DNA of 64,000 bases from Escherichia phage Ec_MI-02. Shown one piece after another: positions 24,348 through 56,450 of the stretch. The position numbers and the translations under genes were made by a program. The notes under the pieces were generated by a model that searched no databases, had not been told where the DNA came from, and worked only from the letters and a program-made list of their open reading frames with translations. The stretch lies in the sequence record OP856590.1; one strand, given 5' to 3'. Numbering within the stretch: position 1 is the first letter of the stretch; each line of letters starts with the position of its first letter.

Positions 24348-24728
24348 TCACTTAGTCAAATTTTTTACGCATGAATTATAAGAATTCACTACATACTCCA
24401 TCGGAGCATTTTTACCTGTACGCCACTGGTAATTATTAGCCCAATTTGCCCAAAGCACGGCACAGTAGTTTTCAATTTTTTCTTCGCGTGTAATTACATC
24501 CGAATTACGATATGCTTGAGCATATTCATCTGGACGAATAGCTTCGTCAAAATTCGCCTGCATTTGTTCTACTGTTTGCTTTGGAGCTTCTTTATAACAC
24601 TTGACATTAGGATTATAAAATTTGCTTGAACAGTTTACAATTTTTCCTACATCAGACTGATTTACTACCGGTCCTTGAGCTACACAACCAGTAAGACCTA
24701 ATGCAATAACCAAAATAGCGATTTTCAT
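24348..24728 (-). CDS. lipoprotein (126 aa), imm.1 position
   Basis: track start TTG; ATG MKIAILVIALGLTGC lipobox with GGAGAA SD. Confidence 0.55.
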   Translation of the reverse strand: MKIAILVIALGLTGCVAQGPVVNQSDVGKIVNCSSKFYNPNVKCYKEAPKQTVEQMQANFDEAIRPDEYAQAYRNSDVITREEKIENYCAVLWANWANNYQWRTGKNAPMEYVVNSYNSCVKNLTK

Positions 24729-24800
24729 TTCATTCTCCAAATCCGTATTAGTTGATAGTTGTATAGTACCACAGAGGAACGGTCTTGTAAACAGTTTTGT
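24721..24800 (-). repeat. promoter/5'UTR cassette repeat (copies at 51031..51085 and 52451..52530)
   Basis: about 47 nt plus about 27 nt near-identical to 52451..52530, including RBS and start region. Confidence 0.7.
24762..24792 (-). promoter_or_regulatory. T4 early-type promoter upstream of imm.1-position gene
   Basis: GTTTAC-N18-TACTAT; part of repeated cassette. Confidence 0.5.
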
Positions 24801-24873
24801 GAAAAAATTTTTAGGGAATCCAAAGGGTCCAGAATCATCTCTTTTTCATAAGTATAGATTTATATTACTTGTA

Positions 24874-24896
24874 TGAAAAAGGGACCCGGAGGTCCC
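24874..24896 (-). terminator. rho-independent terminator after gene 43
   Basis: GGGACC-UCCG-GGUCCC followed by UUUUUC. Confidence 0.65.
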
Positions 24897-24909
24897 TAGA
24901 TTTATTCTA

Positions 24910-27606
24910 TCAGCCAAACAGGAAGTCTAACGAAGCTTTTTCTTCATAGTCCATACCTGCCGATTCACACATACCCGCAAGCGGTTTAACAAACGATTTT
25001 TGGAACAAGGTTGAGTAGTCAATCCAAGACAGTACGTCAGAACGAATTTCTTTTGGAAGTTCTGTGCCCGACGGCCAAGCAATACACTTGTCACCAAATG
25101 GATTTCCTTCACGTAATGGAAGAACCATTACTTTATTTCCATCCAAAATTGGAGCTACACCTAGACCACTAACAGCTCGACGATAAGTTAGCACACCACG
25201 AATATGGAACGGGCATTTAAATCCTGGCCAACCTTTATCATCATATTTCGCTATATCGTTCGCAGTTTTTACTTCAGCAATAACTTTATAGTCAAGTTGA
25301 CGATATTCTTTCTCGAAGTTCTTGTAATATTCTTGGACAGACTCTTCACCTTCCTGAAGAATACGACGAATACTTTCTTCGAGAGCTTCTTGTACTGCTT
25401 TTGGTGTTGAACTCTGCTGAGTTTCCATACCCATGATTTTTAGATGCGGTTCAGCAAATCGCTTATCTTCCATATCATAAACGTTCAGAGCATAACGTTT
25501 TTTCGCTTTCCAAAATCCACCGACACCCTTTGAACCAAGCGGAGGGCAAGAAATAGCTTCACGGTCCATATGCATCAGATGCTCGCGGTTATTCATATAA
25601 TCACATAACTCACGATATGCAACATCAATCATAGGTTCCATCTTTTTCTTACCAAACTGATTCATGAATTCAACTAAATCATTTTGTTCTTTAAAGCGAT
25701 CAAGACCTACTTTTTCAATAACTTTATCTACACAAACATATACCGAATCAGTATCACCTGCTGCGATGAAATCTTCACCATTAGTTCCACATACTTTATT
25801 CAGATATTCATTAATTTTGCGAGCAATCCACTGAATACCGACTTGACCGAAAATTGTGATAGCAGTAGCATTTCGCAAATCATAGTAACGGAAATGAATA
25901 TTACCAAGAGCACCATAAAGACTGTTAATAAGAATTTTACGGTTCAGCTGATTTGTGTTAGCAAGTGTAGCTGCTTTTTCACATTCTTCAATCAGACTAT
26001 TGAGAACAGATTCAGTATAATTCGATAGTTCATTTAAGAAATCATCACTGAACTTAACATATCGTTCAACTTCTGGTTTAGTTGAACAAGACCCTGCGCC
26101 TTTCATAATAATCTTTTTAATAGCTTCGGCATTCATTTCTTCCGCGAACATTTTCTTTTTCCAATCTTTACGCTGGAAAAATACTTTAGCGATTTCCTTT
26201 GGAATGATACCTTCTTGATGCTTATCATACATCCATCCATTCGGAGAACAAGAATATTCATCACTTGGCTTAGGAGCTGTTCCTGCGATATATTCATGAA
26301 TTGGATGAACTTTAAACTGCCCACGAATAGTCTCAGGACTAATGTTAACCTGACGAATAATGCTAGGATACAGAGACGTCAAGTCAAAACTCATAATGTA
26401 TCGACGAGCAATTGGTTTAGGTTCAAACACAAATGCACCTGGAAAACTTTGTTTAATGTGCGAACCTTGTTGAGGAATAACCTTATGTTCACATTTCAGT
26501 GAGTTAAAAATAATAGCATCCCAAGTTTTAATAGGGCTCATTACACCAGAAAAAGGCATTTTAGCGTAATAAGACATACTTAAAACTAGATCGATAAACC
26601 CACGAATTTTATCAATTGCTTGAACTGATTCTACGTCAATGATGTTATAACTAATGTATCGCTGATGATTAGTCTCACGAAGTTTATTAATAGGACCATC
26701 GTACGGTAATTTACCTTTTTTGGTTTCATGTTGAGCAACTGATTCCAAAGAGAACGATGGCAAATTAGTAAATGCGAATTTCTTGTACAAATCTAAATAA
26801 TCAAGAATAGATACGCCATCAATAGAATAAATTTCTTTGCTACCGTACATATTTTGAATTAGTTTAGATTTTACTCGACCGATTGGAGAGAAGCGTTTCA
26901 TACTACGTTCACCGAGAACCATTTTAACACGATTCATGATATACGGAACGTCAAATCCCTCAATATTCCAACCGGTAAAAATAGCAGGTCGTTTCTGTTC
27001 CCAGAGATTAATATATTCCATGAGCATATCACGCTCATTATCAAATGGCATATAAATTACTCGGTCAAGAATTTCTTGAGGAACTTCATCACCACCTTCA
27101 CAGTCAAGCTTAGCAGCTAACTTTGCATCCCATTTTGATACTGAACCGTACATTGAATTCAACAAATCAAAGACGTAAAAACGATCATCAATTGAATCAT
27201 AATGAGTGATAGCATCAATTTCATATTCTGCTTTCATTGGGTCAGGAAATTTATCACCGGTAACCTCAATGTCACAGTTAGCTACACGAACAAATTTTCG
27301 GTCATAAACAATTTCTGAACCATATGTATCACTGATATAAGCGAGTTTAAAATCGTTCATACCAAGAGCTTCGAGACCGATGTCTTCCATTCGCTTCATC
27401 CAGTCTCGTGCATCTTTCATTGATGGAAATTTTTGAGGAGCACAGTTTTTACCATAAATGTCTTTGTACTTTGACTCTTCCTTACAATGCCTAAACATAG
27501 TCGGAAGATATTCTACTTCACGAGTACGTTCCTTTCCATTTTCATCAATATAACGCTCAACAATATTATTTCCGACTGTTTCGATAGAGATATAAAATTC
27601 TTTCAT
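24910..27606 (-). CDS. 43: DNA polymerase gp43 (family B, 898 aa)
   Basis: 898 aa; exo and pol motifs (DIE, DTDS); ATG confirmed. Confidence 0.95.
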   Translation of the reverse strand: MKEFYISIETVGNNIVERYIDENGKERTREVEYLPTMFRHCKEESKYKDIYGKNCAPQKFPSMKDARDWMKRMEDIGLEALGMNDFKLAYISDTYGSEIVYDRKFVRVANCDIEVTGDKFPDPMKAEYEIDAITHYDSIDDRFYVFDLLNSMYGSVSKWDAKLAAKLDCEGGDEVPQEILDRVIYMPFDNERDMLMEYINLWEQKRPAIFTGWNIEGFDVPYIMNRVKMVLGERSMKRFSPIGRVKSKLIQNMYGSKEIYSIDGVSILDYLDLYKKFAFTNLPSFSLESVAQHETKKGKLPYDGPINKLRETNHQRYISYNIIDVESVQAIDKIRGFIDLVLSMSYYAKMPFSGVMSPIKTWDAIIFNSLKCEHKVIPQQGSHIKQSFPGAFVFEPKPIARRYIMSFDLTSLYPSIIRQVNISPETIRGQFKVHPIHEYIAGTAPKPSDEYSCSPNGWMYDKHQEGIIPKEIAKVFFQRKDWKKKMFAEEMNAEAIKKIIMKGAGSCSTKPEVERYVKFSDDFLNELSNYTESVLNSLIEECEKAATLANTNQLNRKILINSLYGALGNIHFRYYDLRNATAITIFGQVGIQWIARKINEYLNKVCGTNGEDFIAAGDTDSVYVCVDKVIEKVGLDRFKEQNDLVEFMNQFGKKKMEPMIDVAYRELCDYMNNREHLMHMDREAISCPPLGSKGVGGFWKAKKRYALNVYDMEDKRFAEPHLKIMGMETQQSSTPKAVQEALEESIRRILQEGEESVQEYYKNFEKEYRQLDYKVIAEVKTANDIAKYDDKGWPGFKCPFHIRGVLTYRRAVSGLGVAPILDGNKVMVLPLREGNPFGDKCIAWPSGTELPKEIRSDVLSWIDYSTLFQKSFVKPLAGMCESAGMDYEEKASLDFLFG

Positions 27607-27666
27607 AGATATTCCTTAGTTTATAGCCCGAGTTATTAGGCTCTTGATATATTATACTCCAAATAA

Positions 27667-27680
27667 GGGGCCGAAGCCCC
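27667..27680 (-). terminator. GC hairpin with UUCG loop after regA
   Basis: GGGGC-UUCG-GCCCC then UUAUUU. Confidence 0.5.
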
Positions 27681-27684
27681 TTGC

Positions 27685-28053
27685 TTAATTACCAATCGTA
27701 TATTTTGGAACGAGTTTCCATTCATGTTTTTGTTTAAAAGAAATAACTCGGAAGTTATTAGTTAAATCTTTCATAAAAGTTCTTTGACCAGGAACGATTT
27801 CAATCAGTCCCCAATCTTCTAACAGCCACGCAATCGAATCACGACGAACTTCATCTTCTTCTGTCATTTCAACCTGGCGACCATCCATACGAAGCATTTC
27901 TTTAAAATGAACGATATAGTATAGTCCTTTTTTCTGAAGAATGTGGCAGGACTGATACAGAACTTTATCTTTATTATTAGCAATTCCCATACGAGTCAAA
28001 GTTTCTTTTACTTTCAGAAAATCTTCAGGTTTTTTAAGAGTAATTTCAATCAT
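27685..28053 (-). CDS. regA: RegA translational repressor (122 aa)
   Basis: 122 aa; directly downstream of gene 62; ATG confirmed. Confidence 0.85.
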   Translation of the reverse strand: MIEITLKKPEDFLKVKETLTRMGIANNKDKVLYQSCHILQKKGLYYIVHFKEMLRMDGRQVEMTEEDEVRRDSIAWLLEDWGLIEIVPGQRTFMKDLTNNFRVISFKQKHEWKLVPKYTIGN

Positions 28054-28054
28054 T

Positions 28055-28618
28055 TTACCATTCCAATGCTAGTTTTTTGAGTTGTTTCTGTTCTTTTACG
28101 TTCTTAGTCACTTCTTTCAAAAAATCATCCGTGACTAAACCTTTTAGTTCTTTTAATACTAAAGGAAGTTTTCCATTTTTAGTAAGAATTGATTTATAGT
28201 TAATTGCATCATTTGTATTAACTTGATACCGCTTAGCAAGTAACTTAATAATCAATACTTCAGTAGAATCTTCGACCAGTTTTGCCCATTTACCATATCT
28301 TTTACCACGAGGAACAGCAGCCATCAGATAATTAAAATGGGCTTCATCGCTTAAACCTGATCCAATTAAATTCATAGCATATACAGCTGGCATGCATTCA
28401 GGAAATTGTGATAATGCATTCTCAACCATGTATTTTGAATAATCTTTTTGAGCAATAGAGCATTTAGTTTTATTATTAATAGCTCCAATTATTTCAAAAA
28501 ATTCATTTTCAGCTTTTTCCTTAAAAGAATCAGCAGCAGATTGGACAGCTGTCCAATCTTTTGAATACCAAGCAACTTGATGCTCGTTTAATTGAATATC
28601 ATCTTCAAATAAGCTCAT
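28055..28618 (-). CDS. 62: clamp loader small subunit gp62 (187 aa)
   Basis: 187 aa; between 44 and regA. Confidence 0.8.
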
Positions 28619-28619
28619 A

Positions 28620-29579: not shown

Positions 29580-29610
29580 AATTTCCTCATTCAAGTTTTA
29601 GTGTAAATTT

Positions 29611-33143: not shown

Positions 33144-34159
33144 TGTGTTGCCTCTACATATAACTGATTTGCATATTGAATAAGTGCTTCGCGATCAGAA
33201 TCAGTGATGTCTGGAATTGCATTAATGTATTCTTCCATCAACGTCTGAAGAGATTGAACTTCAACTTCTTCACTATCATCTGACTCGACAGAGTTATCAA
33301 TCTTTGACACAACTCGTAATGAATGCACAACTTTTTCTAGTTCAGATTCGAACTTCGTTAGATTTTTGTCTACTTCAGTTACTATAACACGTACTGATAG
33401 ATTTGTAAAATCTTTATAGTCAATTTTTCCTTTAAATGGATAATGAATTCTACGATGCCAGGTAGTGTTGTTTGGAATAAATTCCATTCGTTCTGTTTCT
33501 GTATCAAACATCCAGAACCCACGAGGGTCATTCTCGTCACCTGCAGTTAGTGTCCATGGTGTCCCAATATATCTGACGTTAGCAGCCTCAGAAATAGTAT
33601 GGAAGTGACCAGACCACACCTCTTTATAAGTCTTAAGGAAATCAGGTTCAAGACCGTGAGATTTCATTCCTTTATAAAAATAAAATCCATTCAGCTCCCA
33701 GTGACCAACACAAAAAGAAGCAGATGAAGTTTTGATGTGTTCAAGAATTTCACCAGTATTTTCTTCACACATCCAAGGAATTAAATCAATCAAACATCCG
33801 TCAAAATCTACTGTAGTAGGCTTATCATATACTTTAACATTAGGGTATTTAGCCAAAAGCTCAGTAGAAGCATTTGGATGCATTACATTTTTGTAGTGGA
33901 GATCGTGATTTCCTACAATAGTATGTAATGTGATTCCAGCGTCATCAAGCATTTGAACTATTTCACGAGCAAACTCCATAGTTTTATGTGTGATTGCTTT
34001 TCGCACATCAAAAATATCACCATATTGAATCCATACAGTAATTCCATTTTTCTTAGAATATTCTATCGCTTGCTTAATTCCATCAATTTGAATACCGCGA
34101 ATCCACTCATCATCAGCTTTAACGCCTAAATGCCAATCACCCAAGTTTAGTATTTTCAT
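33140..34159 (-). CDS. 47: recombination nuclease subunit gp47 (SbcD/Mre11-like, 339 aa)
   Basis: calcineurin-like phosphoesterase motifs GDWHLG, GNHD; 339 aa. Confidence 0.9.
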   Translation of the reverse strand: MKILNLGDWHLGVKADDEWIRGIQIDGIKQAIEYSKKNGITVWIQYGDIFDVRKAITHKTMEFAREIVQMLDDAGITLHTIVGNHDLHYKNVMHPNASTELLAKYPNVKVYDKPTTVDFDGCLIDLIPWMCEENTGEILEHIKTSSASFCVGHWELNGFYFYKGMKSHGLEPDFLKTYKEVWSGHFHTISEAANVRYIGTPWTLTAGDENDPRGFWMFDTETERMEFIPNNTTWHRRIHYPFKGKIDYKDFTNLSVRVIVTEVDKNLTKFESELEKVVHSLRVVSKIDNSVESDDSEEVEVQSLQTLMEEYINAIPDITDSDREALIQYANQLYVEATQ

Positions 34160-34760
34160 GGTGTCTTTTCCATCCCAATTTAGCTGCTTTTGAAACTAGT
34201 TCTTTAATTTTTCCTTTTGTCCATTCAGGACCAGGAGGTTCATGACATAACATTTGCTTAACTCCGTTATTATACCATTTTTTACCTTTATTATGTGATG
34301 AAGCTTTAAATTTATTTGACCTTCCTTTTACATAACCTTCTGGAATATAAGGTAAAAAGGCAGATTTTCCTGTTAATGGATCATGTGAATGTATATTTCC
34401 TTTACAATTATGAGAACCATATAATGGATGATTTTGTCCTTTATTATCTCTTCCAAATGAACCTTTTGGAGCAGCATATGACATATTAAAGAATAATGGA
34501 TTTTTAACTGCATCGTGCAATCGTTGATAATATAACTCGCATTTAATAGCTTCTTCACGCGTATCAAATTCAGCTAAAATGCATGAATCAAATAAATGAG
34601 GATTATCTGAAAGCTCTTTATTATAAATTTTCTTATACTTTTTAGATAAAACTGACCCATGATATCCAGCTAAATGCCTATCTAAAGATGTAGATCCAAT
34701 ATAAAAAGGAGGAAGTTTATCTCCACTATATATGGTTAAATAAGTTATATATTTTTTCAT
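34137..34760 (-). CDS. GIY-YIG family homing endonuclease-like protein (seg-like, 207 aa)
   Basis: N-terminal TIYSG...FYIGST...R..H...E motif; C-terminal NUMOD3-like GKKWYNNG; overlaps gene 47 start by 23 nt. Confidence 0.65.
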   Translation of the reverse strand: MKKYITYLTIYSGDKLPPFYIGSTSLDRHLAGYHGSVLSKKYKKIYNKELSDNPHLFDSCILAEFDTREEAIKCELYYQRLHDAVKNPLFFNMSYAAPKGSFGRDNKGQNHPLYGSHNCKGNIHSHDPLTGKSAFLPYIPEGYVKGRSNKFKASSHNKGKKWYNNGVKQMLCHEPPGPEWTKGKIKELVSKAAKLGWKRHHENTKLG

Positions 34761-36589: not shown

Positions 36590-36872
36590 TCATATCCTCA
36601 ATCTGCGATCTAGTAGTCTTCCAAAGAATACTAATGAGTTCATCGTTATATGGCTGTTTTAAAATATCCCGACTTTTCTTGATAGCATATTCGTATTGAG
36701 CGAAATTATTGTTTTCAGCTGCAATCTGAGCGTGCTTATAAAGACGATTCAGTTCGCGTTTGTTTTTAGACAATAACTTATTTGCTTTTCTTTCTGCTTC
36801 AAGACGGTTCTTTTCTTCAATAGAAGAAATAAGCTTTTCCACTTCATCATTAATTTCGGGTTTATCAGTCAT
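36555..36872 (-). CDS. hypothetical protein (105 aa)
   Basis: ORF, helical/charged. Confidence 0.5.
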   Translation of the reverse strand: MTDKPEINDEVEKLISSIEEKNRLEAERKANKLLSKNKRELNRLYKHAQIAAENNNFAQYEYAIKKSRDILKQPYNDELISILWKTTRSQIEDMIDAYTRKIQAS

Positions 36873-36873
36873 A

Positions 36874-37092
36874 TTATTTCTCTAATATAAAATAAAAATC
36901 ATCATCTGTTAAATGATACCGATAGTTTAATTCTACACCATTAGATTTAAAAGCGGTATCATACGGATTTTCTGGATCAATATCAATGTCAAGAGCTAAA
37001 ACTTCCCTGAGATACATTTTAAGTAAATAGGGAATAGCTTCAACTTCAGGTATTTCTTCCAAGAATCCGGAGAGGTTAATCGTTAGCCTCAT
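36874..37092 (-). CDS. hypothetical protein (72 aa)
   Basis: ORF downstream of gene 55. Confidence 0.45.
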
Positions 37093-37633
37093 ATAAAAAA
37101 TCCAAACTAGGAGAATCGTCTACAACACTTTTCTTTTCAGCCCCCGGTGTTCTATAGGTTGATTCTTCGTAATGCGTCATTTTATCGTAGATGTCTTGAA
37201 TAAAAGTTTCATCCACTAACGCAACCATATCGTCGTCACGACTGTCATAGACATTGTGAACGAAGTAACTGTATTTCTTTGCAACTTCCTTACGTTCTTT
37301 TTTAATACGTTGGACGAATGCATTAAAACAAGCTTGAGTTATATATGCATGTGGGTTTTTATATTTCGTTTCATCAAAATTATGAAGCCCCTTAATAGAA
37401 GCTTCTATACCATCTGCAATCATTTCTTGTTTCCAAGATTGGGTGTATCCTGAAAAGTTGAAACGTTTAGATAAGCCTTCTGCAATAAGCATAATGGCTA
37501 ATCCGATAGTATCATTCTGACGAACTACTTTATTTGGGTCTTTATTATTTGCTAATTCTGTTTTCCAATCAATAATAGCTTGTAAAAGCTCTTTATTGTT
37601 TACGTAATTATATTTAGGCTTAGTTTCTGACAT
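37076..37633 (-). CDS. 55: late sigma factor gp55 (185 aa)
   Basis: track start GTG; ATG two codons later gives the T4 length. Confidence 0.85.
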
Positions 37634-39208: not shown

Positions 39209-39377
39209 GGAGTTTAATTTCCTTAGCAACTGAACTAAATACAACACGATCGCAAATCATCTGTTTATTCCATTTAAGTACAGTATAATGAACATCTAGA
39301 TCATCTACTGCTGTAACAATAACAATATGTCCGTTAACACGATAATACTGATCTCTTTTAATCTCTTTATCAACCAT
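39201..39377 (-). CDS. small hypothetical protein (57 aa)
   Basis: not in track; promoter - GAGGAT SD - ATG arrangement. Confidence 0.4.
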   Translation of the reverse strand: MVDKEIKRDQYYRVNGHIVIVTAVDDLDVHYTVLKWNKQMICDRVVFSSVAKEIKLHG

Positions 39378-39407
39378 ATCAAATCCTCAAAGGCAATTCA
39401 TATGTTA

Positions 39408-39437
39408 ATAATACCACAGTTTGAACTTCTTGTAAAC
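39408..39437 (-). promoter_or_regulatory. T4 early-type promoter
   Basis: GTTTAC-N18-TATTAT. Confidence 0.45.
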
Positions 39438-40174: not shown

Positions 40175-40645
40175 TTAATCATGTTTCCACACCCCATCGG
40201 TATTTGACCAAAGTCGCTGATTATCTGATCCTCGCCACAACTTTTTGGTCGGAAGATTTTTCTCATACTTCCCATCAATAATAACATCAACATATTTAAG
40301 CATTTCTAGTTGTTTAATATCTTCAAATTTATATCCTGTCCACAACCAAATGCTTTTATTTGGATAAAGATTTTTTACTGTTTGAACAATGCAATGAATA
40401 ACATCTCGGTTATCAGGATAGAGAGGGTCTCCTCCAGTTATAGTTAATCCTTCTATATAATCATTATTCAAACATTTAATTAATTGTTCCAGCGTTTCAC
40501 CAGTGAATGGAACACCGTTTCTAGCATTCCATGTTGATTTATTATAACACCCTTCGCATTTATGCAAACAACCTGTAACGAAAAGAACAGTTCGGCACCC
40601 AGGACCATTAACAAAGCAACACGGATATATTCTGTCATAATTCAT
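40175..40645 (-). CDS. nrdG: anaerobic ribonucleotide reductase activating protein NrdG (156 aa)
   Basis: radical-SAM cluster CLHKCEGC; 156 aa. Confidence 0.85.
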   Translation of the reverse strand: MNYDRIYPCCFVNGPGCRTVLFVTGCLHKCEGCYNKSTWNARNGVPFTGETLEQLIKCLNNDYIEGLTITGGDPLYPDNRDVIHCIVQTVKNLYPNKSIWLWTGYKFEDIKQLEMLKYVDVIIDGKYEKNLPTKKLWRGSDNQRLWSNTDGVWKHD

Positions 40646-41474
40646 TTATATATTTCCAATTATAGCCTTCAACACTTTTACGTTCGCCATTTAAACATTT
40701 TAAAATATTTCCTTTGCTAGAAATATTAAAATATTTTGCTGCGTCTGGTATATAATTAAATGTTTTTAAAAGAACACCATCTTTGTATGCGCCAAATAAA
40801 TTAAGAGTATATTTTTCTCGAAGACGCTGATGTTTCCTTTTCATAACCTCAGGATTTGCATACGCCAGCTTTAATGAATTTCTATGTTTTTCTTTTACTT
40901 CAGGTTTTTGCATTGCTAACTTAGTTAGCCTGGAAATTTTATTTCTAACTTTATCAGTTTTCATTGCATTTGACAAATTTAATAAAGTTTTATTTCTAAC
41001 TTCAGGTTTTTGCATTGCTAACTTAGTTAGTTCGCTATGTCTTTTTCTAAAATCGTCATCTTTCCATATATTTTTCGATAATTTTGACATAGAGCGGTGA
41101 AATAATTCCCTTTCTTTGGAATACAGTTTAAAAATTTCATCCAATTCATCAGTATTAAATCTATCAGTATTCGAGTTTATCATTCTATGAAAGGCATAAC
41201 ACATTTTACTATTACTTGTTTTAGCTAAATAGTAATGAGCCAATGCATGGTCATAATATGACAAATTAACAATATTCCATTTATCTGTTTTATATTCAGG
41301 AAATATAGATTTGGGAAGCACGTGATGTGCTTCCGTTTTCCCCTTTATTTTAGGATTATTATAATTTTTTATTATCAAATCAACATATGACAATAATAAA
41401 TCATTATTTTCTTCAAATATTAAAGTTAATTTATCATTCACAAAATCACAGGGATAAAATCTATCGTAATTCAT
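40635..41474 (-). CDS. HNH homing endonuclease-like protein (mob-like, 279 aa)
   Basis: HNH motif AHHVLPKS...NIVNLSYYDHALAH; inserted between nrdD and nrdG; N-terminus MNYDRFYPC mimics nrdG start. Confidence 0.7.
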   Translation of the reverse strand: MNYDRFYPCDFVNDKLTLIFEENNDLLLSYVDLIIKNYNNPKIKGKTEAHHVLPKSIFPEYKTDKWNIVNLSYYDHALAHYYLAKTSNSKMCYAFHRMINSNTDRFNTDELDEIFKLYSKERELFHRSMSKLSKNIWKDDDFRKRHSELTKLAMQKPEVRNKTLLNLSNAMKTDKVRNKISRLTKLAMQKPEVKEKHRNSLKLAYANPEVMKRKHQRLREKYTLNLFGAYKDGVLLKTFNYIPDAAKYFNISSKGNILKCLNGERKSVEGYNWKYINEL

Positions 41475-47052: not shown

Positions 47053-48054
47053 TTACTTAATTAATTGTAAAGCTTGTTCAAGACGATCCAGGCGATTAAC
47101 AGATTCTTCCCAAATCTTTTTAGCCTGCTCATATTCTTTCTGCGCTTTATTAGAAATTTCTAGAACTTCCTTATAAGCTTTTTCTAATGCAATAACTTCT
47201 GAACGAATTTCTACTGGTTCAGGTGAATCATCAAGATTATCCATTAGTTCCTCAAGGGTAGTTTCTTCTTTAGGAGTATTCACAATTTCATCACATTTTT
47301 GTTGGTAAATTTCTTTATCAGTCGGTGAGTACGCACACTTTACTTCACGGAGACTAACTACAATTTTATATCCTTCCCAACCGCATATATTCTTAAAAGG
47401 ATAAGTATGAATATTTTCTACTGTTTCCATACAAAGTAATGCAGTCTCTAATTGACGAGTTATATCGCTAGCAATTGAGAAAAATTTATTGATGTTCTTT
47501 TGATTAGCTTCTGGTGTAAAAAATTCATAATTCACAAAAATAGCTGCTTTATTTTTATCAAGTTCATATTCTTTTATGATAATCATATCAGAAGCCCAAG
47601 GATGAATTTGACGATAATCGCCATAGCATAATTTAGAAGCTGATTTTAGAATTTGCTTTTTGAAAAGTCTGAAATTACTAATCCAACGACGAGTAAAAAT
47701 ATTATCAGGATCTTCTTTAATATTACGATGATATGAATTAACATCACCGAACCAATTATATCCTACTACATCTTTAGTTCGTTTAATTTCTTTCCCAAAT
47801 TTACCGAGAATATCTTGATTAACTAAATATGAAAGAAGACGAGACCTTTTAAAGGTTTCCTTAATATCATCTTTATATTCGCGACTAGAAATTTTATGAA
47901 CTTCATGAATAAATTTGCTTGAAGAAACAATACTTGCATCAGTATTATTGAGCCACTGATTGATAATAGAAAGAACACTATTCTGACTAGACATAGGTTT
48001 AACTTTATCATCAATAACGCTATTGAATGATTTGATATATTCGTTACGAGTCAT
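47053..48054 (-). CDS. coiled-coil paralogue family member 2 (333 aa)
   Basis: track start TTG lies in promoter; ATG MTRNEYIKSF with GAGGAG SD; motif FRLFKKQILKSASKL. Confidence 0.6.
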   Translation of the reverse strand: MTRNEYIKSFNSVIDDKVKPMSSQNSVLSIINQWLNNTDASIVSSSKFIHEVHKISSREYKDDIKETFKRSRLLSYLVNQDILGKFGKEIKRTKDVVGYNWFGDVNSYHRNIKEDPDNIFTRRWISNFRLFKKQILKSASKLCYGDYRQIHPWASDMIIIKEYELDKNKAAIFVNYEFFTPEANQKNINKFFSIASDITRQLETALLCMETVENIHTYPFKNICGWEGYKIVVSLREVKCAYSPTDKEIYQQKCDEIVNTPKEETTLEELMDNLDDSPEPVEIRSEVIALEKAYKEVLEISNKAQKEYEQAKKIWEESVNRLDRLEQALQLIK

Positions 48055-48082
48055 ATTAATCTCCTCAGTAGAAAGTAAGAAC

Positions 48083-48112
48083 ATTATACCACATCCTTGT
48101 GGCAAAGTAAAC
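48083..48112 (-). promoter_or_regulatory. T4 early-type promoter
   Basis: GTTTACTTTGCCACAAGGATGTGGTATAAT; 29/30 identical to 2429..2458. Confidence 0.6.
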
Positions 48113-49134
48113 TAGTTCAGTGCATTTAGTGCATTGTTCAGTTTAGAACGTTGCTTTGTCAGATTTTGAACCCTTGACTGAGCTTGTTCTAACACCTTTT
48201 CAGCTTCTAGCACTTCATTGGTCGCTTTAACGAGTTCATCATCTACTGCCTTAAGAGACTTCTTAATCGCGTCAGCGTGCCATTTTTCTACAGGTTTAAA
48301 ATTTGAATTTTCAGTAGGAAGAAAACTCACTTTATTAAGTTTACATGCATCTATATTGCTTGAGCTATACATCCAAAATTTAGGATCGTTTGATGAGTAA
48401 TTGGATAAATTTAAGTTATCTTGCACTTCCTGCTTTTTCTCTTGCGGGATTTCGTCCTTTCTCAAAAAATCGTATTTAAATGAAACGATCATATCAAGTT
48501 CATATGTTGTTGTGTCTAATTTAAATCGCTCAAAACGAGGTAAAATCTTAGACTGAACAGCGGCAACAACATCCATATACTTAAATGCTTCTGTCAACTG
48601 CGATTTAAGGCATTCGCAAATTGAAAGAGAATTTTTTGTATTAGGTTTAAAGCTAATTCGCGCAGTTCTGTTATTTTCTTTTAATGGTCTTACTTCCATC
48701 TGAAGAGTATAACCATCAAATTTCAGGTTCTTTAAGTTAATGTCAGAACCTTTTAATCGACTAGCAGTCGACAAAATTTGCTTTAATTGTCTACGGAACA
48801 GAGCAATAAATCTCCATTCAATACGATAATGATTTGGATTGAAAAATCCAGATGATAAATCGACCTTACTTTGACCAACGCCTTGAACAAATAGAGGATT
48901 TTTATAATCAATAGTTTTACAGAAATCTGTGAGCTGCTCACGAGCAGTCATTTGTGTAATATACCCCGCTTTACTAAAATTACTCACCCATTCACTGCTA
49001 TTTAGATATTTAAAGTGATGAATAGCACGATTAACTTTATCAGGGTCTAAATTATTTTCACACAAAAATGTCATAACATTACGAGTATCGCTGGCAGTAC
49101 GAACCATATCTTCAATTTGAGAACGAGTTTTCAT
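48112..49134 (-). CDS. coiled-coil paralogue family member 3 (340 aa)
   Basis: ATG; motif FRRQLKQILSTASRLKG; C-terminal coiled coil. Confidence 0.6.
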   Translation of the reverse strand: MKTRSQIEDMVRTASDTRNVMTFLCENNLDPDKVNRAIHHFKYLNSSEWVSNFSKAGYITQMTAREQLTDFCKTIDYKNPLFVQGVGQSKVDLSSGFFNPNHYRIEWRFIALFRRQLKQILSTASRLKGSDINLKNLKFDGYTLQMEVRPLKENNRTARISFKPNTKNSLSICECLKSQLTEAFKYMDVVAAVQSKILPRFERFKLDTTTYELDMIVSFKYDFLRKDEIPQEKKQEVQDNLNLSNYSSNDPKFWMYSSSNIDACKLNKVSFLPTENSNFKPVEKWHADAIKKSLKAVDDELVKATNEVLEAEKVLEQAQSRVQNLTKQRSKLNNALNALN

Positions 49135-50497: not shown

Positions 50498-51025
50498 TTA
50501 TGCGAGTACCGTCTTTAACCGTTCTTCAAACTTCCGAAGAGTATTTTGGCGTTCAGCTCTTTGCTTTTTGTAAGTTTCAATACGCTCTGAAATGAGAGTG
50601 TATCGTTCATTTACTGATTCTTTCATAAAATCAGGAATTTGACGAGAAGCTTTAATCTCGTCAAATTTATCAATAACAGCTTGCTCTTCAGCAATTAAGT
50701 TATCATACATTAAAATATCTTTCTTGATGAACTCAATATCTTCTTGAGTTACACGAGATAATTTAGATGCTTTATCCTTTTTGTACTGTTCGTTAGTATC
50801 ACGAGACCAGTGTAATGTACGATTTTTATTCGTATTCTTATAAATTTCTACAATACCAATCTCATCAATAATAACGATCCAATTCCAACGGGATTTGTAA
50901 ATTTGTCCTCCATCAACAGTGATTTCACCTCCGATTGAGATGTCATTAAAGAACTTGCTTTGTGCTTCAGATTTAAATTTACCATCGTTGTAATTTACCA
51001 AGTTGAAAATATCTTTAGCGTTCAT
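50498..51025 (-). CDS. hypothetical protein (175 aa)
   Basis: ATG; early promoter upstream. Confidence 0.55.
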   Translation of the reverse strand: MNAKDIFNLVNYNDGKFKSEAQSKFFNDISIGGEITVDGGQIYKSRWNWIVIIDEIGIVEIYKNTNKNRTLHWSRDTNEQYKKDKASKLSRVTQEDIEFIKKDILMYDNLIAEEQAVIDKFDEIKASRQIPDFMKESVNERYTLISERIETYKKQRAERQNTLRKFEERLKTVLA

Positions 51026-51052
51026 TTTCTGTTCCTCCGTAGTTGATAGTTG

Positions 51053-51083
51053 TATAGTACCACAGAGGAACAGTCTTGTAAAC
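51053..51083 (-). promoter_or_regulatory. T4 early-type promoter
   Basis: GTTTAC-N18-TACTAT; repeated cassette. Confidence 0.5.
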
Positions 51084-51085
51084 CA

Positions 51086-51388
51086 CTAAAAGAAACTTCT
51101 TTCACAATTTTTTCCACTGAACCAGGCGCTCACTGCTTTCTTGGTCTCAGGAGCAGTGTTATCCATAAACCATTCAAAGGCAGCCTTTTTATGATTCTGG
51201 AGGGCTTCTCGGGCTTTAATCTGCTCACGGTCTATTAACACTAACATATGAGCCTTTCTTGTCACCATGGGCTTCTTATGATTTTTTGAATACTCCCAGT
51301 CATTTGTCCATCGCATTGTTGTTGCGAACTGAAATACTGCTTCTTTAATTTTAGTTTCGTAAATTTCACGAGCCTTTGAGTATAACAT
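51086..51388 (-). CDS. hypothetical protein (100 aa)
   Basis: second ATG chosen (GGAGGT SD). Confidence 0.5.
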   Translation of the reverse strand: MLYSKAREIYETKIKEAVFQFATTMRWTNDWEYSKNHKKPMVTRKAHMLVLIDREQIKAREALQNHKKAAFEWFMDNTAPETKKAVSAWFSGKNCERSFF

Positions 51389-51489
51389 CACTACCTCCAT
51401 TCATCAGTTTAATTCTAGTCATCTTTTTAATGGCAGTCCATATAATCTATTTCTGAACTGCCTTTTTGTCATAGAAGTCCTCTTATGAA

Positions 51490-52458
51490 TTATTTCAAAA
51501 GAGTAACCTCAGCAATTTCTTCCCAACCGTTTTTGTCGGTCATAATAAAGTCAGCAAGATAAAGAGCAGTACGCAGTGAAACATTGCGTAAACGATTAAC
51601 ATTAACTTTCATCCATGATAATGCTTTATAAGTTTCTTCATCAGAAAGACCGCGCTTTTGCATCATGTCAGTTGAAAGAATAACATCTTCAACCCTGACC
51701 ATAATTTCTTCATTAGTGTGAACACCCAAATCTAAATAAACCGAGCGGGACACTAATGCTTGTAAATGTGGAGCAAGTTTAGTACCACGGTCTAATTCGC
51801 GGTCAATGTCAACGTTTGTGATAAAAACAATCGTTCCTTTAAATTCAAACTCACGCTCAATGCCTTTTTCTTCTAAGTAAGAAGACGCAGTGCTCCAGCA
51901 GACTTTACGGGTCTCTCCAGTGTCCAGAGCGGCTTTTAGAAGATTAAGAATGTCCATATCAGAGAAAACATCTACATCATCAATCAAAAGGACAGAATTC
52001 TCTTCACGATTATTCCAAAGCTGCTCATAAAGACCAATACCAGAGATTTTACCATTAATGCTTTTATATTCAATGTATCCAATATCATTTGCTTTATTTA
52101 AAGCTTTATCTAAAGAATACGTTTTACCAATACCTGCTGCGCCAGAGATAATTAATGAACGAATATTTCCGTTAATAATACCATTCGTCATCATTCCCAT
52201 AACATTAAATCTTTTATTAATGCGGGTTTTCATATCTTCATATGATTCTTTAACTTCTTCAACTTTTACACCATCATATGAAATATCTGATTTGTAAACC
52301 CAAACACCGCGACGTTTACCGTCAATTTCAACAAAAACTTTACCATCTCCTTGTGCATCTACCGGAGCATTATCTGGGAACCATTCGCCTAAGAGCTCAA
52401 AAGTTCCAGAGATTTCTTTACCGAAGTAGATACCCTTATTGATAGTTACAGTTTTCAT
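51490..52458 (-). CDS. P-loop AAA-type ATPase (322 aa)
   Basis: Walker A GAAGIGKT, Walker B VLLIDDVD; track start TTG trimmed to ATG. Confidence 0.7.
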   Translation of the reverse strand: MKTVTINKGIYFGKEISGTFELLGEWFPDNAPVDAQGDGKVFVEIDGKRRGVWVYKSDISYDGVKVEEVKESYEDMKTRINKRFNVMGMMTNGIINGNIRSLIISGAAGIGKTYSLDKALNKANDIGYIEYKSINGKISGIGLYEQLWNNREENSVLLIDDVDVFSDMDILNLLKAALDTGETRKVCWSTASSYLEEKGIEREFEFKGTIVFITNVDIDRELDRGTKLAPHLQALVSRSVYLDLGVHTNEEIMVRVEDVILSTDMMQKRGLSDEETYKALSWMKVNVNRLRNVSLRTALYLADFIMTDKNGWEEIAEVTLLK

Positions 52459-52491
52459 TTTATTCTCCAAATCCGTATCAGTTGATAGTTG

Positions 52492-52522
52492 TATAGTACC
52501 ATAAAGCTTTATGCTTGTAAAC
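52492..52522 (-). promoter_or_regulatory. T4 early-type promoter upstream of AAA ATPase gene
   Basis: GTTTAC-N19-TACTAT; repeated cassette. Confidence 0.45.
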
Positions 52523-52552
52523 CGTTTTGTGAAAAAATTTTGAAATAAAAAA

Positions 52553-52570
52553 GGGAGCCCGAAGGCTCCC
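52553..52570 (-). terminator. rho-independent terminator after NTase-like gene
   Basis: GGGAGCC-UUCG-GGCUCCC followed by UUUUUUAUUU. Confidence 0.7.
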
Positions 52571-52572
52571 TA

Positions 52573-53586: not shown

Positions 53587-54044
53587 TCAGCCTTATATTC
53601 AATAACAGGACATACTTTAGCTTTACGCGCTTTTAAAAATTCGACGATAATAGATTTCTTGGGTTGAATAGGAGGTAAACCTTTATACGCCCTATCAATA
53701 TTTTCTACATGTAAAGCATAATCCTTTTTCCATTTATAATCTTTATATTTTTCATGTAGTTGTGCAGGAATAACAAATGAACCAATAATAAGTAAAACAA
53801 GCAAAATGGCAAGTATAAATGCTGATGGAATAAGAGTCCATAAACTACCAAAAATAAGCCATTTCTGTATGATTTCTGCACAGATAATAGTTAGACCTGC
53901 GAGTATAGTACATCCGAAAAAAGAAACGAAAAATGTAGGGATAACAATAGACCAAAAATATGCACAAAGTGTCTTAGGTCGTTTCCATTCGTCGTTAAAC
54001 ATTTTGAATAATTTATAATGCCAAGAGTTTTCATTAATAATCAT
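53583..54044 (-). CDS. membrane protein (153 aa)
   Basis: two long hydrophobic helices; ATGA-coupled to the NTase-like gene. Confidence 0.55.
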   Translation of the reverse strand: MIINENSWHYKLFKMFNDEWKRPKTLCAYFWSIVIPTFFVSFFGCTILAGLTIICAEIIQKWLIFGSLWTLIPSAFILAILLVLLIIGSFVIPAQLHEKYKDYKWKKDYALHVENIDRAYKGLPPIQPKKSIIVEFLKARKAKVCPVIEYKAE

Positions 54045-54046
54045 AA

Positions 54047-54568
54047 TTATCCTTTCATTGAAGGTGTAACAGTTGTTAAATACTTAATCATAGCTTCAGC
54101 TTCTGATTTTGATAATGAAATTTCTCCATTATTTTGACGAATAGAAATAAAATCCGGATGACGGTCACCACCAGCTTTTAAAACACACATATAAGTATCA
54201 GTTTCATCTTCAATATTTGAAATGATTGAAGCAGTTCCACATGAATGTGGTTTTTGATAAACTAATACAGCTTTTCTTCCACCGTTTGACTGTTCATAAA
54301 CTTTTAATACATCAAACAAATCACTTCTTTTATCAATAGCTAAGATGTTGTTTTCATCTTCAATATTAAATCCTTCGGATACTTCATAAAGTGTCACCCA
54401 TAAATCACCTATATCGATAGTAGCATTTCCTTTTCCACGACTTTCAAGAATGTGACAAATTTTCTTAATTTCATCATAACTCATTTTAATAATATCATCT
54501 CCTTGACTAAGGAAGATGTCATTTTTAAATTCAACGCGAATTAAACCACTTCCACTTGAAATAAACAT
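54047..54568 (-). CDS. hypothetical protein (173 aa), paralogue of 54575..55108
   Basis: shared GFNIE and C-terminal KYLTTVTPSM motifs. Confidence 0.55.
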   Translation of the reverse strand: MFISSGSGLIRVEFKNDIFLSQGDDIIKMSYDEIKKICHILESRGKGNATIDIGDLWVTLYEVSEGFNIEDENNILAIDKRSDLFDVLKVYEQSNGGRKAVLVYQKPHSCGTASIISNIEDETDTYMCVLKAGGDRHPDFISIRQNNGEISLSKSEAEAMIKYLTTVTPSMKG

Positions 54569-54574
54569 ATTTCC

Positions 54575-55108
54575 TCACTTTGAAATCATAGTTGGAATGA
54601 CAGAATCAAGATAAGTCTTTAGCGCAATAGCTTCGTCTTTGGTAAATGTGACAATATGCGATCGAAAATCATCAATTTGACGAATAGTTAAGACATCTCC
54701 ATCTTCATAACATTTTGATACGTTTAAAACAGTTTCATCATTCTGATTGCAAGCGTTAGTAATAATAGCATTGCAATTTTTAAACCATTTTAAACTATGT
54801 TTTCTTTCATTAGAATAATAAAAATATTTAATCTTATCTATAAAACTGTCCCAATGAATAACTGATAGGCATATTGACTCGCTTTCAATATTAAATCCTG
54901 GGCATGAAGAATAAAAATGAATTTTATGCTCATCATTAATGCTTACAATTTTATCAGTATAAGGATTTTCAATTTGGGTTAAATGAATGATTTCACTAGG
55001 CGTAAAATACATCATATCATCTTCTTGCGTCAAACGATACATATTATTTACTTTTTCTATAGCTAATTCACCAAAAAGTGAACTAACTTCTAGTACTAAT
55101 CGTTTCAT
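54575..55108 (-). CDS. hypothetical protein (177 aa), paralogue of 54047..54568
   Basis: second ATG chosen (AAAGGA SD); C-terminal KTYLDSVIPTM. Confidence 0.55.
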   Translation of the reverse strand: MKRLVLEVSSLFGELAIEKVNNMYRLTQEDDMMYFTPSEIIHLTQIENPYTDKIVSINDEHKIHFYSSCPGFNIESESICLSVIHWDSFIDKIKYFYYSNERKHSLKWFKNCNAIITNACNQNDETVLNVSKCYEDGDVLTIRQIDDFRSHIVTFTKDEAIALKTYLDSVIPTMISK

Positions 55109-55109
55109 A

Positions 55110-55388
55110 TTAATCCTTTTTATTGGCATGAATTTGTTTTAAAATTTTAGAGTATTCCTTTGTATCAGATTTACGCACAATCGATACACTATAAGGCATA
55201 CTATCGGTGTCTTTTATAAAACGTTCCAAATGACACTCTAACAAAATTTCTGGGTTATAAATCGTGTACATCAAATTACCTGTTGCTCCACGATATTGAC
55301 AGATTTCTACTGATTGAGCGTCATTCCACAATTTTGTTAAGACTAAATCACCTACTTCTAATTTCGGAAAGCTCACATTATTCACCAA
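55110..55388 (-). CDS. hypothetical protein (92 aa)
   Basis: ORF; start codon uncertain (TTG/GTG). Confidence 0.4.
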   Translation of the reverse strand: MVNNVSFPKLEVGDLVLTKLWNDAQSVEICQYRGATGNLMYTIYNPEILLECHLERFIKDTDSMPYSVSIVRKSDTKEYSKILKQIHANKKD

Positions 55389-55569
55389 TTAAAGTTTCAA
55401 TTAATTCTCTTAACTTAAAAGCTTGTTCACTTGTCATTACATACTCCTTTGAATAATATCAATAATATTGTTCACCAGATTATAAGTAAACATTGGGTAA
55501 TTATATTGAATCATCACATACACAACAAACAAAACTTTCATTCTCTTCTCCTTGGCAGTTGACAAGATT

Positions 55570-55599
55570 ACTATATCATAACCTTGCCAACTTGTAAAC
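55570..55599 (-). promoter_or_regulatory. T4 early-type promoter
   Basis: GTTTAC-N18-TGATATAGT. Confidence 0.5.
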
Positions 55600-55601
55600 C
55601 A

Positions 55602-55775
55602 TTAAATGACGTTTTCAATAAAATTCTGAAGCTTTGTGTGAGCATCAACCATAATTTTCATTTCTTCCTTTGCGAAAGCTGTACCTCTTTCTCGAGCAGA
55701 ATACTCATAGTCAGAAACTGCATTAGCATATTCTTCAATTAGCTTCATTAAAAACATCTGCTTTTCAGTTTTCAT
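55602..55775 (-). CDS. small hypothetical protein (57 aa)
   Basis: not in track; ATG with GGTGGA SD. Confidence 0.3.
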   Translation of the reverse strand: MKTEKQMFLMKLIEEYANAVSDYEYSARERGTAFAKEEMKIMVDAHTKLQNFIENVI

Positions 55776-55959
55776 TATTCCACCTAATCATTTCAAGATA
55801 TTGAACTAACTTAGCTTTGGATTTATCCAAATCCTTTTTAGCTGCTTCTATACCATCATATGAATATCCTTCACAATGCTCAACTGCCAATTGGTATGAA
55901 TCTATTTCAATATCACGTGCTAATTTAATGATTTTTTCAAACTGTTCACGTGTTAGCAT
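55765..55959 (-). CDS. small helical protein (64 aa)
   Basis: ATG; MxTREQ family start. Confidence 0.45.
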   Translation of the reverse strand: MLTREQFEKIIKLARDIEIDSYQLAVEHCEGYSYDGIEAAKKDLDKSKAKLVQYLEMIRWNNEN

Positions 55960-55961
55960 AC

Positions 55962-56165
55962 TTAAACTCTCGTATTATGATCGATAATTTCATCAAGAAA
56001 CATATCTAAAGCTTCTACAGCATTATCAACTTTAGCTTCAAATTTTTCAATACCTTTATTTGCAATGCCTGACGAAAACCAGGCAAAGTCACTAAGTTCC
56101 TCATCTGCTTTGCGAATTAAAGCTACCAATTCTTTAATTTTATCTGCTTGTTCAATGCTAATCAT
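55962..56165 (-). CDS. small helical protein (67 aa)
   Basis: trimmed to ATG with TAATG coupling. Confidence 0.45.
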   Translation of the reverse strand: MISIEQADKIKELVALIRKADEELSDFAWFSSGIANKGIEKFEAKVDNAVEALDMFLDEIIDHNTRV

Positions 56166-56353
56166 TATTCCACCACATATGAAAGAGAGAATATTGCACA
56201 CGCCATGTGAGTTGCAGCTTCATCACACATATCATAACGTTTCTTAAGAAGTTCTACAAGTTCTTCACTAGTAACTTCATCCATGTCGACGAAAAAATCA
56301 CCATTAATGATGACGTAGATATTTCCTTCTTGATTGAGTGCTTCAATTTTCAT
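56165..56353 (-). CDS. small acidic protein (62 aa)
   Basis: track ORF ran through promoter; [11 protein letters not shown] with AAGAGGAG SD. Confidence 0.45.
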
Positions 56354-56380
56354 GATGTTCTCCTCTTTATCCGATAGTTG

Positions 56381-56411
56381 TATAGTATCACAGCTCAAAT
56401 GGAAAGTAAAC
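56381..56411 (-). promoter_or_regulatory. T4 early-type promoter (copy of the 15.1 kb module)
   Basis: GTTTAC-N18-TACTAT; adjacent degenerate UUCG hairpin. Confidence 0.5.
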
Positions 56412-56450
56412 CGGTAAAATGAAAAAAGGACTCCCCGAAGGAGACTAATG
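56400..56450 (-). repeat. promoter-terminator module repeat (copy of 15141..15189)
   Basis: about 45 nt near-identical: ggaaagtaaaccggtaaaatgaaaaaaggactccccgaaggag. Confidence 0.7.

Follow-up and report, generated by a model that had tools for sequence, protein, structure and literature searches.

Early promoter modules and exchange between their copies in the first 64 kb of the T4-like Escherichia phage Ec_MI-02

Introduction

The early promoters of phage T4 form a class (the "uber" UP/-35/TGn/-10 type) whose consensus has been reviewed (PMC2988021). In phages RB49 and phi1, composite elements named promoter-early stem-loops (PeSLs) were described together with a model of gene shuffling (Arbiol et al. 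2010, PMC2839356), and mini-circles formed between PeSLs were shown experimentally in the same phages (PMC2839356). The concept was then extended to the PST/T4 pair, with the consensus TTTACW N17 TAYWAT (Comeau et al. 2014, PMC4122927). Here we examine dispersed intergenic repeats in the first 64,000 nucleotides of Escherichia phage Ec_MI-02 (record OP856590.1), a stretch referred to below as the window. The repeats are very probably the regulatory units of Tequatrovirus prereplicative genes, with extra similarity that comes from functional constraint plus ectopic exchange, and with cassette gain and loss as a minority route.

These repeats resemble PeSLs (PMC2839356, PMC4122927) in combining a terminator stem-loop, an AT-rich stretch, -35 and -10 boxes, a Shine-Dalgarno (SD) sequence, and ATG, in a phage of the same genus. 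The published proposal also treats the copies as patches of homology for the gain, loss, and exchange of open reading frames (ORFs), and its crossover zones (the stem-loop, the AT-rich region, and the interval from the -10 to SD/ATG) agree with the junctions found in the window. In contrast to the published picture, the upstream stem-loop was found at only 5 of the 19 window promoters, promoter-bearing junctions were not preferred as breakpoints in a seven-genome comparison, and the clearest exchange was a conversion between copies 41 kb apart rather than an excision between neighbors. The repeats and the idea of their recombination are thus already known in kind, since the composite element and the shuffling model have been published and the sites are orthologous to those of T4.

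Another described system bears on the promoters themselves. Inhibitory hairpins occur at the translation initiation regions of the late-promoter T4 genes e, soc, 49, and I-TevI and of homing-endonuclease genes (PMC3014915).

Results

The repeats are early promoter units

The window comprises the first 64 kb of a Tequatrovirus (T4-like) genome in the T4 map convention, its position 1 aligning with T4 position 1. It is collinear with T4 over 22 blocks of 74 to 98% identity, and its closest record is Shigella phage pSs-1 (~98% identity). All genes from rIIA to denV lie on the minus strand. Promoters were assigned to genes by coordinate transfer from T4; the T4 GenBank record holds no promoter features, and promoter annotation was drawn from U76612 and a few other records.

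Read on the minus strand, every repeat flagged in the initial annotation was a T4 early promoter unit, so that its identification of promoters, ribosome-binding sites (RBSs), and terminators was correct. Each unit consists of an A/T-rich UP stretch, a GTTTAC -35 box, a 17-nt spacer, a TGn-extended -10 box (TAnnnT), a leader, an SD, and ATG. All consensus elements of the T4 early promoter (Pe) were present, on the coding strand and ahead of early genes. The pattern TTTAC-N15-TGnTAnnnT had 18 matches in the window, 17 of them on the minus strand, against 0.36 expected. A scan for sigma-70 promoters in general (90 hits, 84 expected) was uninformative and was set aside in favor of this extended pattern. 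Nineteen units were retained:

2404-2460, minus: rIIA.1 early promoter and 5' untranslated region (5'UTR), -35 to -10 at 2429-2457, 31/32 repeat of 48083-48114; placed by T4 coordinates
6062-6177, minus: promoter/RBS module of a small ORF between motB and cef, degenerate -35 (ATATAC); 24722/52452 family
6676-6748, minus: motB early promoter, hairpin 6707-6741 around the -10
7797-7853, minus: motB.2 early promoter (T4 P8.1; name from PMC2988021), hairpin 7805-7847, spacer paired with the SD
11654-11718, minus: srd early promoter, extended pattern
12999-13054, minus: modB early promoter, extended pattern
15099-15191, minus: full PeSL, soc terminator plus mrh.2 early promoter (15125-15153) plus RBS; hairpin 15169-15191 with UUCG loop and U-run
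18491-18545, minus: sp early promoter; the 309-nt cassette has its right junction exactly at the -35 GTTTAC
18548-18857, minus: 309-nt cassette with its own early promoter (18806-18834), hairpin 18793-18828, and a 60-aa ORF (18594-18776)
19265-19322, minus: dmd early promoter, hairpin 19281-19316 around the -10; family D2
24728-24811, minus: imm.1 early promoter/RBS module, UP and 5'UTR of nrdC.10 type, spacer and -10 of nrdC.8 type
39377-39436, minus: 55.6 early promoter, terminator-like hairpin 81 nt upstream
48054-48114, minus: nrdC.4 early promoter, 31/32 repeat of 2429-2460
51025-51085, minus: nrdC.8 early promoter, -35/-10 as in U76612, hairpin 51029-51073, spacer paired with the SD
52458-52571, minus: full PeSL, nrdC.11 terminator (52552-52571) plus nrdC.10 early promoter (52493-52521) plus RBS
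55541-55609, minus: mobD.2 early promoter, hairpin 55557-55592; family D2
56353-56445, minus: rI.-1 terminator (56429-56445) plus mobD.5 early promoter (56382-56410), apparently converted at 56400-56443
60736-60794, minus: regB early promoter, hairpin 60740-60786, spacer paired with the SD (AAGAGGAG)
63840-63894, minus: denV early promoter, where the variable internal-protein locus (62929-63841) has its right boundary; weaker hairpin 63845-63889 between spacer and SD

Two further hairpins accompany them:

24880-24897, minus: terminator hairpin that follows gene 43; the imm.1 -35 lies 88 nt farther downstream
27665-27682, minus: GGGGC-UUCG-GCCCC hairpin after regA, one of a recurring GC-rich family (D4) with others at 4328, 29610, 34921, and 38560

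Seventeen of the promoters, from rIIA.1 to denV, are orthologous to T4 sites position for position, without material difference; the other two drive small ORFs absent from or truncated in T4. Promoter 18806 drives a cassette that T4 lacks. U76612, a T4 record, annotates the nrdC.8 site as -35/-10, and this T4 site was identical at 45/45 positions to the imm.1 promoter core of the window. Other phage records annotate a terminator and a promoter at the 56.4-kb site.

Two further sites were also seen. A full match to the extended pattern at 33381-33409 (minus) lies within the coding sequence of gene 47 and may be either an internal promoter that serves the genes downstream or a coincidence. A weaker promoter-like sequence, TTTACT N17 TATTAT without TGn, lies at 55462-55490 inside the tiny mobD.2 ORF; the SD-ATG just past it (55435) is the junction of a 315- to 327-nt two-ORF insertion absent from T4, ime09, and CT01.

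Several features that define PeSLs were general among these units. The sigma-70-type early promoter (TTTACW N17 TAYWAT in the T4/PST group) was present, an AT-rich region preceded the -35, and SD-ATG closed the 3' end ~25 to 45 nt from the -10 in 19/19 promoters. The stem-loop was not general: a GC-rich hairpin followed by a U-run within 130 nt upstream was found at 15125, 24763, 39408, 52493, and 56382, the last one degraded. Only these five modules fit the PeSL definition in full, and most of the 19 are plain early promoters. The hairpin at 15169-15191 (-15 kcal/mol, z = -4.2) bears out the description of 15141-15189 as a promoter plus UUCG terminator, on the minus strand. The hairpins with U-runs at 52552-52571 and 24880-24897 had folding energies of -17.4 kcal/mol (z = -4.1) and -13.9 kcal/mol (z = -3.3), whereas the 56.4-kb copy was weakened (-5.6 kcal/mol, z = -1.0). 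A scan of the window gave 22 terminator-like sites against 9.5 expected.

The copies are mosaics

All three repeat sets of the initial annotation were found where it had placed them and far exceeded chance (0 expected in shuffles). The repeat reported at 15141..15189 and 56400..56450 is a 44/44 identity between 15143-15186 and 56400-56443, with 0 matches in 100 shuffles of the window. The pair reported at 2429..2458 and 48083..48112 extends to 31/32 (2429-2460 versus 48083-48114; 0 expected), with a weaker third copy at 60763-60794 that had been missed. The match reported between 24721..24800 and 52451..52530 comes to 78/90 without gaps (24722-24811 versus 52452-52541) and falls into two blocks, 24722-24776 (93%) and 24784-24811 (96%), around a divergent -35/-10 spacer core. 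The partial match at 51031..51085 is 43/44 identical (24749-24792 versus 51041-51084) and supplies precisely the spacer and -10 missing from the 52.4-kb copy. Other overlooked members were 6062-6172, which belongs to the 24722/52452 family and has a degenerate -35; 56341-56395, which shares the -10 and the first part of the 5'UTR; and the three sites of another family (D2), 18782-18845, 19270-19333, and 55546-55609.

Across all units aligned in register, median identity was 39% over 119 aligned nt, and the flagged pairs were outliers. Each of these pairs had a different segment in common: the terminator, UP, and -35 for 15125/56382 (36/45), the spacer and -10 for 24763/51054 (28/29) and 2429/48083 (28/29), and the leader and RBS for 24763/52493 (40/45). 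Thus, the modules are mosaics. The 2429/48083 pair shows the same degree of similarity in T4 and in all relatives and is old or maintained rather than recent.

Some spacers are perfect or near-perfect palindromes, namely CATAAAGCTTTATG in the nrdC.10 promoter (52499-52512) and CCACAAGGATGTGG in the rIIA.1 (2436-2449) and nrdC.4 (48090-48103) promoters. They could form a small hairpin or serve as a protein-binding site.

Two promoters carry traces of exchange between distant copies

The proposal that the repeats are substrates for homologous recombination gained support at two sites. At the rI.-1 terminator/mobD.5 promoter, the stem is perfect in all six relatives (6/6), reading agtctcc-TTCG-ggagact. 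Only the window departs from it, with agtctccttcggggagtcc and the 3' arm of the 15-kb copy, ggggagtcc. The 3' arm, U-run, and -35 at 56400-56443 are those of the soc terminator/mrh.2 promoter (15143-15186), and the chimeric hairpin has a mismatched stem whose energy falls from about -15 to -5.6 kcal/mol. Compared with 499 phage records, the 56.4-kb stretch had no 100% match, the best being 97.5%. By this comparison the change is a lineage-specific conversion tract of ~44 nt, with its donor at 15.1 kb and one edge in the hairpin loop. An arm that copies a paralogue while damaging the local terminator is not expected from selection for function.

The imm.1 promoter combines pieces of three others (nrdC.8, nrdC.10, and cef-upstream), and its composition differs among phages that are otherwise ~98% identical. 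Its spacer is of nrdC.8 type in the window and pSs-1, is half-converted in T4, and belongs to a different allele (ATC[C/T]CTGTTCTTC...) in RB14, CT01, G8, and ime09. Its leader is of nrdC.10 type in the window, G8, and pSs-1 and of cef-upstream type in RB14. The nrdC.8 and nrdC.10 promoters themselves vary little from phage to phage (96 to 100% conserved). Because the spacer pairs with the SD of nrdC.8 and has no partner at imm.1, it was apparently copied from nrdC.8. As with PeSLs, recombination between copies is thus seen in the chimeric 56.4-kb terminator/promoter and in the mosaic imm.1 promoter.

A few gene cassettes are joined inside the modules

The homologous region was compared in T4, pSs-1, RB14, ime09, G8, and CT01. 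Approximately five to seven events at four loci (sp-61.4, imm.1, nrdC.10, and denV/internal protein) had junctions inside modules. At sp-61.4, the window has the 309-nt promoter-plus-ORF cassette where T4 has 35 nt; it is absent from T4, pSs-1, RB14, G8, and CT01 and present in ime09, which carries a second, 315-nt cassette joined at GGAGAAnAAAATG. In G8, imm.1 is separated from its promoter by an additional 233-nt ORF, with the junction at ATGAAAAT, and CT01 has a rearranged duplicate of the imm.1 module. Within the nrdC.10 module, CT01 contains a 639-nt cassette of three ORFs, bounded by two promoters as well as by a 13-nt direct repeat (CTATCAAAACAAA). The variable internal-protein locus has the denV promoter as a border, and the RB14 junction at this locus lies inside the module. 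For PeSL mini-circles, crossovers have been reported in the same zones (the -35, just past the -10, and SD-ATG; PMC2839356).

Simple excision between flanking direct repeats was considered for all module indels and rejected: the 309-nt cassette replaces 35 nt in T4, the nrdC.10 leader of the window is not the exact product of the 13-nt repeat of CT01, and the 200-nt difference at 5872-6073 is an intra-ORF deletion in T4 and pSs-1.

Further differences were seen at these and similar loci. In RB69 (19011-19689), imm and imm.1 lie between sp and 61.4, at the cassette hot spot of the window and ime09, whereas in T4-type genomes they lie next to gene 43; a promoter-led cassette has been translocated from one promoter-bearing locus to another. 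The three-ORF cassette of CT01 (about 36850-37460) contains a tandem duplication of ~150 nt, with the repeat starting TATTTGGAGAAGAATCAATGACAGTTTACG, which suggests recent slippage or unequal exchange. Between motB and cef, an ORF of ~67 aa (5872-6081) stands behind its own promoter-like module. T4 and pSs-1 have a 200-nt deletion inside it (5872-6073) with ATG-AAAA microhomology and the junction ATGGAAAA/GTAAAA, and the remnant is not annotated in T4. A Pfam search with the cassette ORFs 18594-18776 and 5880-6080 returned no matches.

Most breakpoints lie at ordinary gene boundaries

The initial annotation had also named the repeats as the probable cause of the shuffling of gene cassettes here. 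We mapped synteny breakpoints as the ends of chained BLAST blocks (overlap tolerance, 80 nt) in the six relatives, merged into 61 unique positions. The 24780..27685 gap of CT01 was a chaining artifact, and the region was inspected by eye. With a module defined as ATG-10 to -35+60, the 19 modules cover 3.9% of the window. They contained 7 of the 61 breakpoints, and an eighth lay 1 nt outside, an enrichment over a uniform null (P = 0.009). Breakpoints were concentrated at gene boundaries of any kind, with 42/61 located within 20 nt of one against 12% expected.

Other routes accounted for many of the differences. At least nine events involved homing endonucleases or introns, including T4 gene 60/mobA, segF, segA, mobB, mobC, I-TevII, and mobD, a seg-like gene of RB14, and the two window-specific ORFs described below. 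At least 11 more were gene-precise indels at promoter-less junctions, with 2 to 23 nt of homology at start or stop codons. G8, for example, has a gene-precise 2,169-nt deletion between GGTGGAATAATGAAAACTG and GGCTGAATGATGAAAACAG, and in RB14 and ime09 gene 43.1 is inserted between the regA stop codon and the 27665..27682 hairpin at a TAATT(T)AA repeat.

Two ORFs of the window are absent from all six relatives (6/6). A 207-aa GIY-YIG-like ORF (34137-34760, minus) lies between genes 47 and 47.1. A 279-aa NUMOD/HNH-like ORF (40635-41474, minus) occupies the interval from nrdG to nrdD that holds mobC in T4; it opens with 13 codons that duplicate the start of nrdG and contains an internal 34-aa repeat (DNA 40887-40971 and 40989-41073). 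Both are likely homing endonucleases, with Pfam scores under the curated cutoffs.

Many of the promoters are predicted to lie inside RNA hairpins

Nine to ten of the 19 promoters have a -35/-10 spacer whose sequence is complementary to the leader of the same gene. Matched spacer/leader duplexes had energies of -15 to -21 kcal/mol, compared with -6.7 ± 3 kcal/mol for mismatched pairs (permutation P = 5e-5). Folds from the -35 to the ATG gave hairpins that enclose the -10:

60740-60786, minus: regB hairpin, -21.4 kcal/mol, z = -5.2
51029-51073, minus: nrdC.8 hairpin, -23.2 kcal/mol, z = -6.4
7805-7847, minus: motB.2 hairpin, -23.7 kcal/mol, z = -5.9
19281-19316, minus: dmd hairpin, -18.9 kcal/mol, z = -5.4
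55557-55592, minus: mobD.2 hairpin, -19.0 kcal/mol, z = -5.9
18793-18828, minus: hairpin of the 18806 cassette, -18.0 kcal/mol, z = -4.2
6707-6741, minus: motB hairpin, -17.4 kcal/mol, z = -3.1

At regB, nrdC.8, motB.2, and denV, the predicted 3' arm includes the SD. A transcript from the gene's own promoter has its start within the loop and no 5' arm, and a read-through transcript is predicted to have its SD paired. The predicted structures thus show an RBS-sequestering hairpin with an internal promoter, the arrangement of e, soc, 49, and I-TevI. As at those genes, the promoter lies inside the structure and only the promoter-proximal transcript, devoid of the 5' arm, has a free SD. The difference is that here the promoter is early and its own -35/-10 spacer serves as the 5' arm. 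The anti-SD spacer TTTCTCC recurs because it pairs with the SD, and this accounts for part of the spacer similarity among copies.

When leaders were folded sequence by sequence, the regB hairpin was conserved across six genera (Tequatro-, Mosig-, Gelderland-, Karam-, Jiaoda-, and Muldoonvirus) despite divergent sequences, with compensatory changes. Its arms are UUCUCCUCUAGUUG/CAACUAGAGGAGAA in Mosigvirus and UUUCUCCUCUUUAUG/CAUAAAGAGGAGAAA in Gelderlandvirus. Karamvirus and Jiaodavirus combine an outer CUCC/GGAG-type pairing with an inner stem, GGGCUAU/AUAGCCC or GGGCCAU/AUGGCCC, and the Muldoonvirus hairpin has a different register and covers the AUG. By hand count, both sides of the inner stem changed at 5/6 positions among Tequatro-, Mosig-, and Gelderlandvirus. 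In a MAFFT alignment of regB leaders, which mis-registers the arms, covariation amounted to three pairs with double changes (-3 kcal/mol). The hairpin was absent or weak in Gaprivervirus, Tulanevirus, and Krischvirus. In RB69, the motB.2 promoter keeps the hairpin design with a different sequence, and a test of spacer/5'UTR pairing, for which 8 to 9 promoters were detected, gave one strong case, which is weak support taken alone.

A large subset of T4-type early promoters may, tentatively, be built into a hairpin that leaves only own-promoter transcripts translatable and upstream read-through silent. Such a design would be expected to restrict these proteins to the opening minutes of infection. 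T4 reviews, in which the late-promoter and homing-endonuclease cases appear, yielded no description of an early-promoter hairpin; the older literature lay outside the search. An Rfam scan of the whole window returned zero families, with none covering the early-promoter hairpins.

Discussion

The anatomy of the units, their mosaicism, the conversion tract, and the breakpoint statistics are observations of this analysis. They support recombination between copies, in the form of conversion and a few local cassette events, from which we infer the recombination mechanism itself. Similarity among copies would have two sources. One would be shared constraint, that is, the promoter consensus and, in about half of the promoters, pairing of the spacer with its own 5'UTR or SD. 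The other would be ectopic homologous exchange (gene conversion) among dispersed copies by the efficient recombination system of the phage, in which crossovers in the conserved boxes would produce mosaic promoters. The distant pairs are direct repeats 27 to 45 kb apart across essential genes, and therefore only gene conversion is possible between them, deletions being inviable. Between neighboring cassettes, the short homologies at the -35 box, just after the -10, and at SD-ATG may act as junctions for the gain and loss of small promoter-plus-ORF cassettes. These junctions would be a minority route, with most differences in gene content arising at ordinary gene boundaries or through homing endonucleases.

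Some points weigh against this reading. None of the module-associated indels in the genomes compared was the exact single-crossover product of two flanking repeats, and junction homologies were short (8 to 23 nt). The stem-loop that defines PeSLs was missing within 130 nt upstream at 14/19 promoters. Promoter-bearing junctions were hit in 5/18 cases and other junctions in 35/106 (Fisher odds ratio, 0.78; P = 0.79), with breakpoints taken as BLAST block ends from six relatives only and a gene call that was corrected by hand and is still approximate. Early expression by unmodified host RNA polymerase and promoter and terminator activity in this phage are expected by orthology with T4.

The junction counts bear most heavily on a strong form of the hypothesis put forward for PeSLs and in the initial annotation, in which recombination between these cassettes is the main driver of shuffling in the region. 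Junctions inside modules at sp-61.4 (window and ime09), imm.1 (G8 and CT01), nrdC.10 (CT01), and denV/internal protein (RB14), the position of imm and imm.1 in RB69, the enrichment over the uniform null, and the mini-circles of RB49/phi1 (PMC2839356) all speak for it. That part of the earlier proposal holds for a few local events. Its general form is not supported in this sample, since 7 to 8 of the 61 breakpoints in modules is no excess over other gene junctions. Given this parity, the repeats are not preferred breakpoints beyond being intergenic, and in the six relatives no preferential association of modules with indels or replacements emerged, although single positive cases exist. With the homing-endonuclease events and promoter-less indels counted as well, PeSL-mediated shuffling looks like a minor route next to gene-precise short-homology indels and homing endonucleases, and its role as the main driver is unlikely. 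Convergence of strong early promoters and RBSs on one optimum, without any exchange, is less likely still. A clear family consensus (UP, GTTTAC, TGn, -10, GGAG), the recurrence of anti-SD spacers through SD pairing, and the equal similarity of the 2429/48083 pair in T4 and all relatives would agree with it. However, identity between copies runs through positions that the family does not conserve (16/17 in spacers, 40/45 in 5'UTRs), subsegments of imm.1 match different paralogues in a pattern that shifts between ~98% identical phages, and the 56.4-kb tract copies a paralogue arm at the expense of its own terminator.

The repeats might also be the ends of an autonomous mobile element or sites of a dedicated site-specific recombinase, akin to the attC/attI sites of integrons. 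The promoter-plus-ORF cassettes do resemble integron gene cassettes, an analogy drawn in PMC2839356, in being small, single-ORF units in tandem at a few hot spots, and the GC-rich hairpins of family D4 recur. Integron cassettes differ in that the window has neither an integrase nor a fixed recombination core and each of its cassettes has its own promoter. Junctions vary among the -35, the position just after the -10, the SD, the ATG, and the stop codon; the cassettes have no integrase or transposase as a neighbor; the ORFs specific to the window resemble homing endonucleases and occupy junctions without a promoter; and no Rfam or repeat-family signature was found in the window. We regard this origin as extremely improbable. 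Regulatory units shaped by constraint and ectopic exchange remain the preferred explanation.

For gene-content evolution, the breakpoint counts add a quantitative caution, as breakpoints in the window were no more frequent at promoter-bearing junctions than at ordinary ones. The promoter-in-hairpin arrangement, if functional and undescribed, would be a simple mechanism for limiting translation to immediate-early transcripts. The 56.4-kb tract and the imm.1 promoter are two clean examples of ectopic conversion, in which the regulatory modules lie tens of kilobases from one another; the first of these conversions degrades a terminator. Such conversions imply that promoter evolution in these phages is partly concerted.

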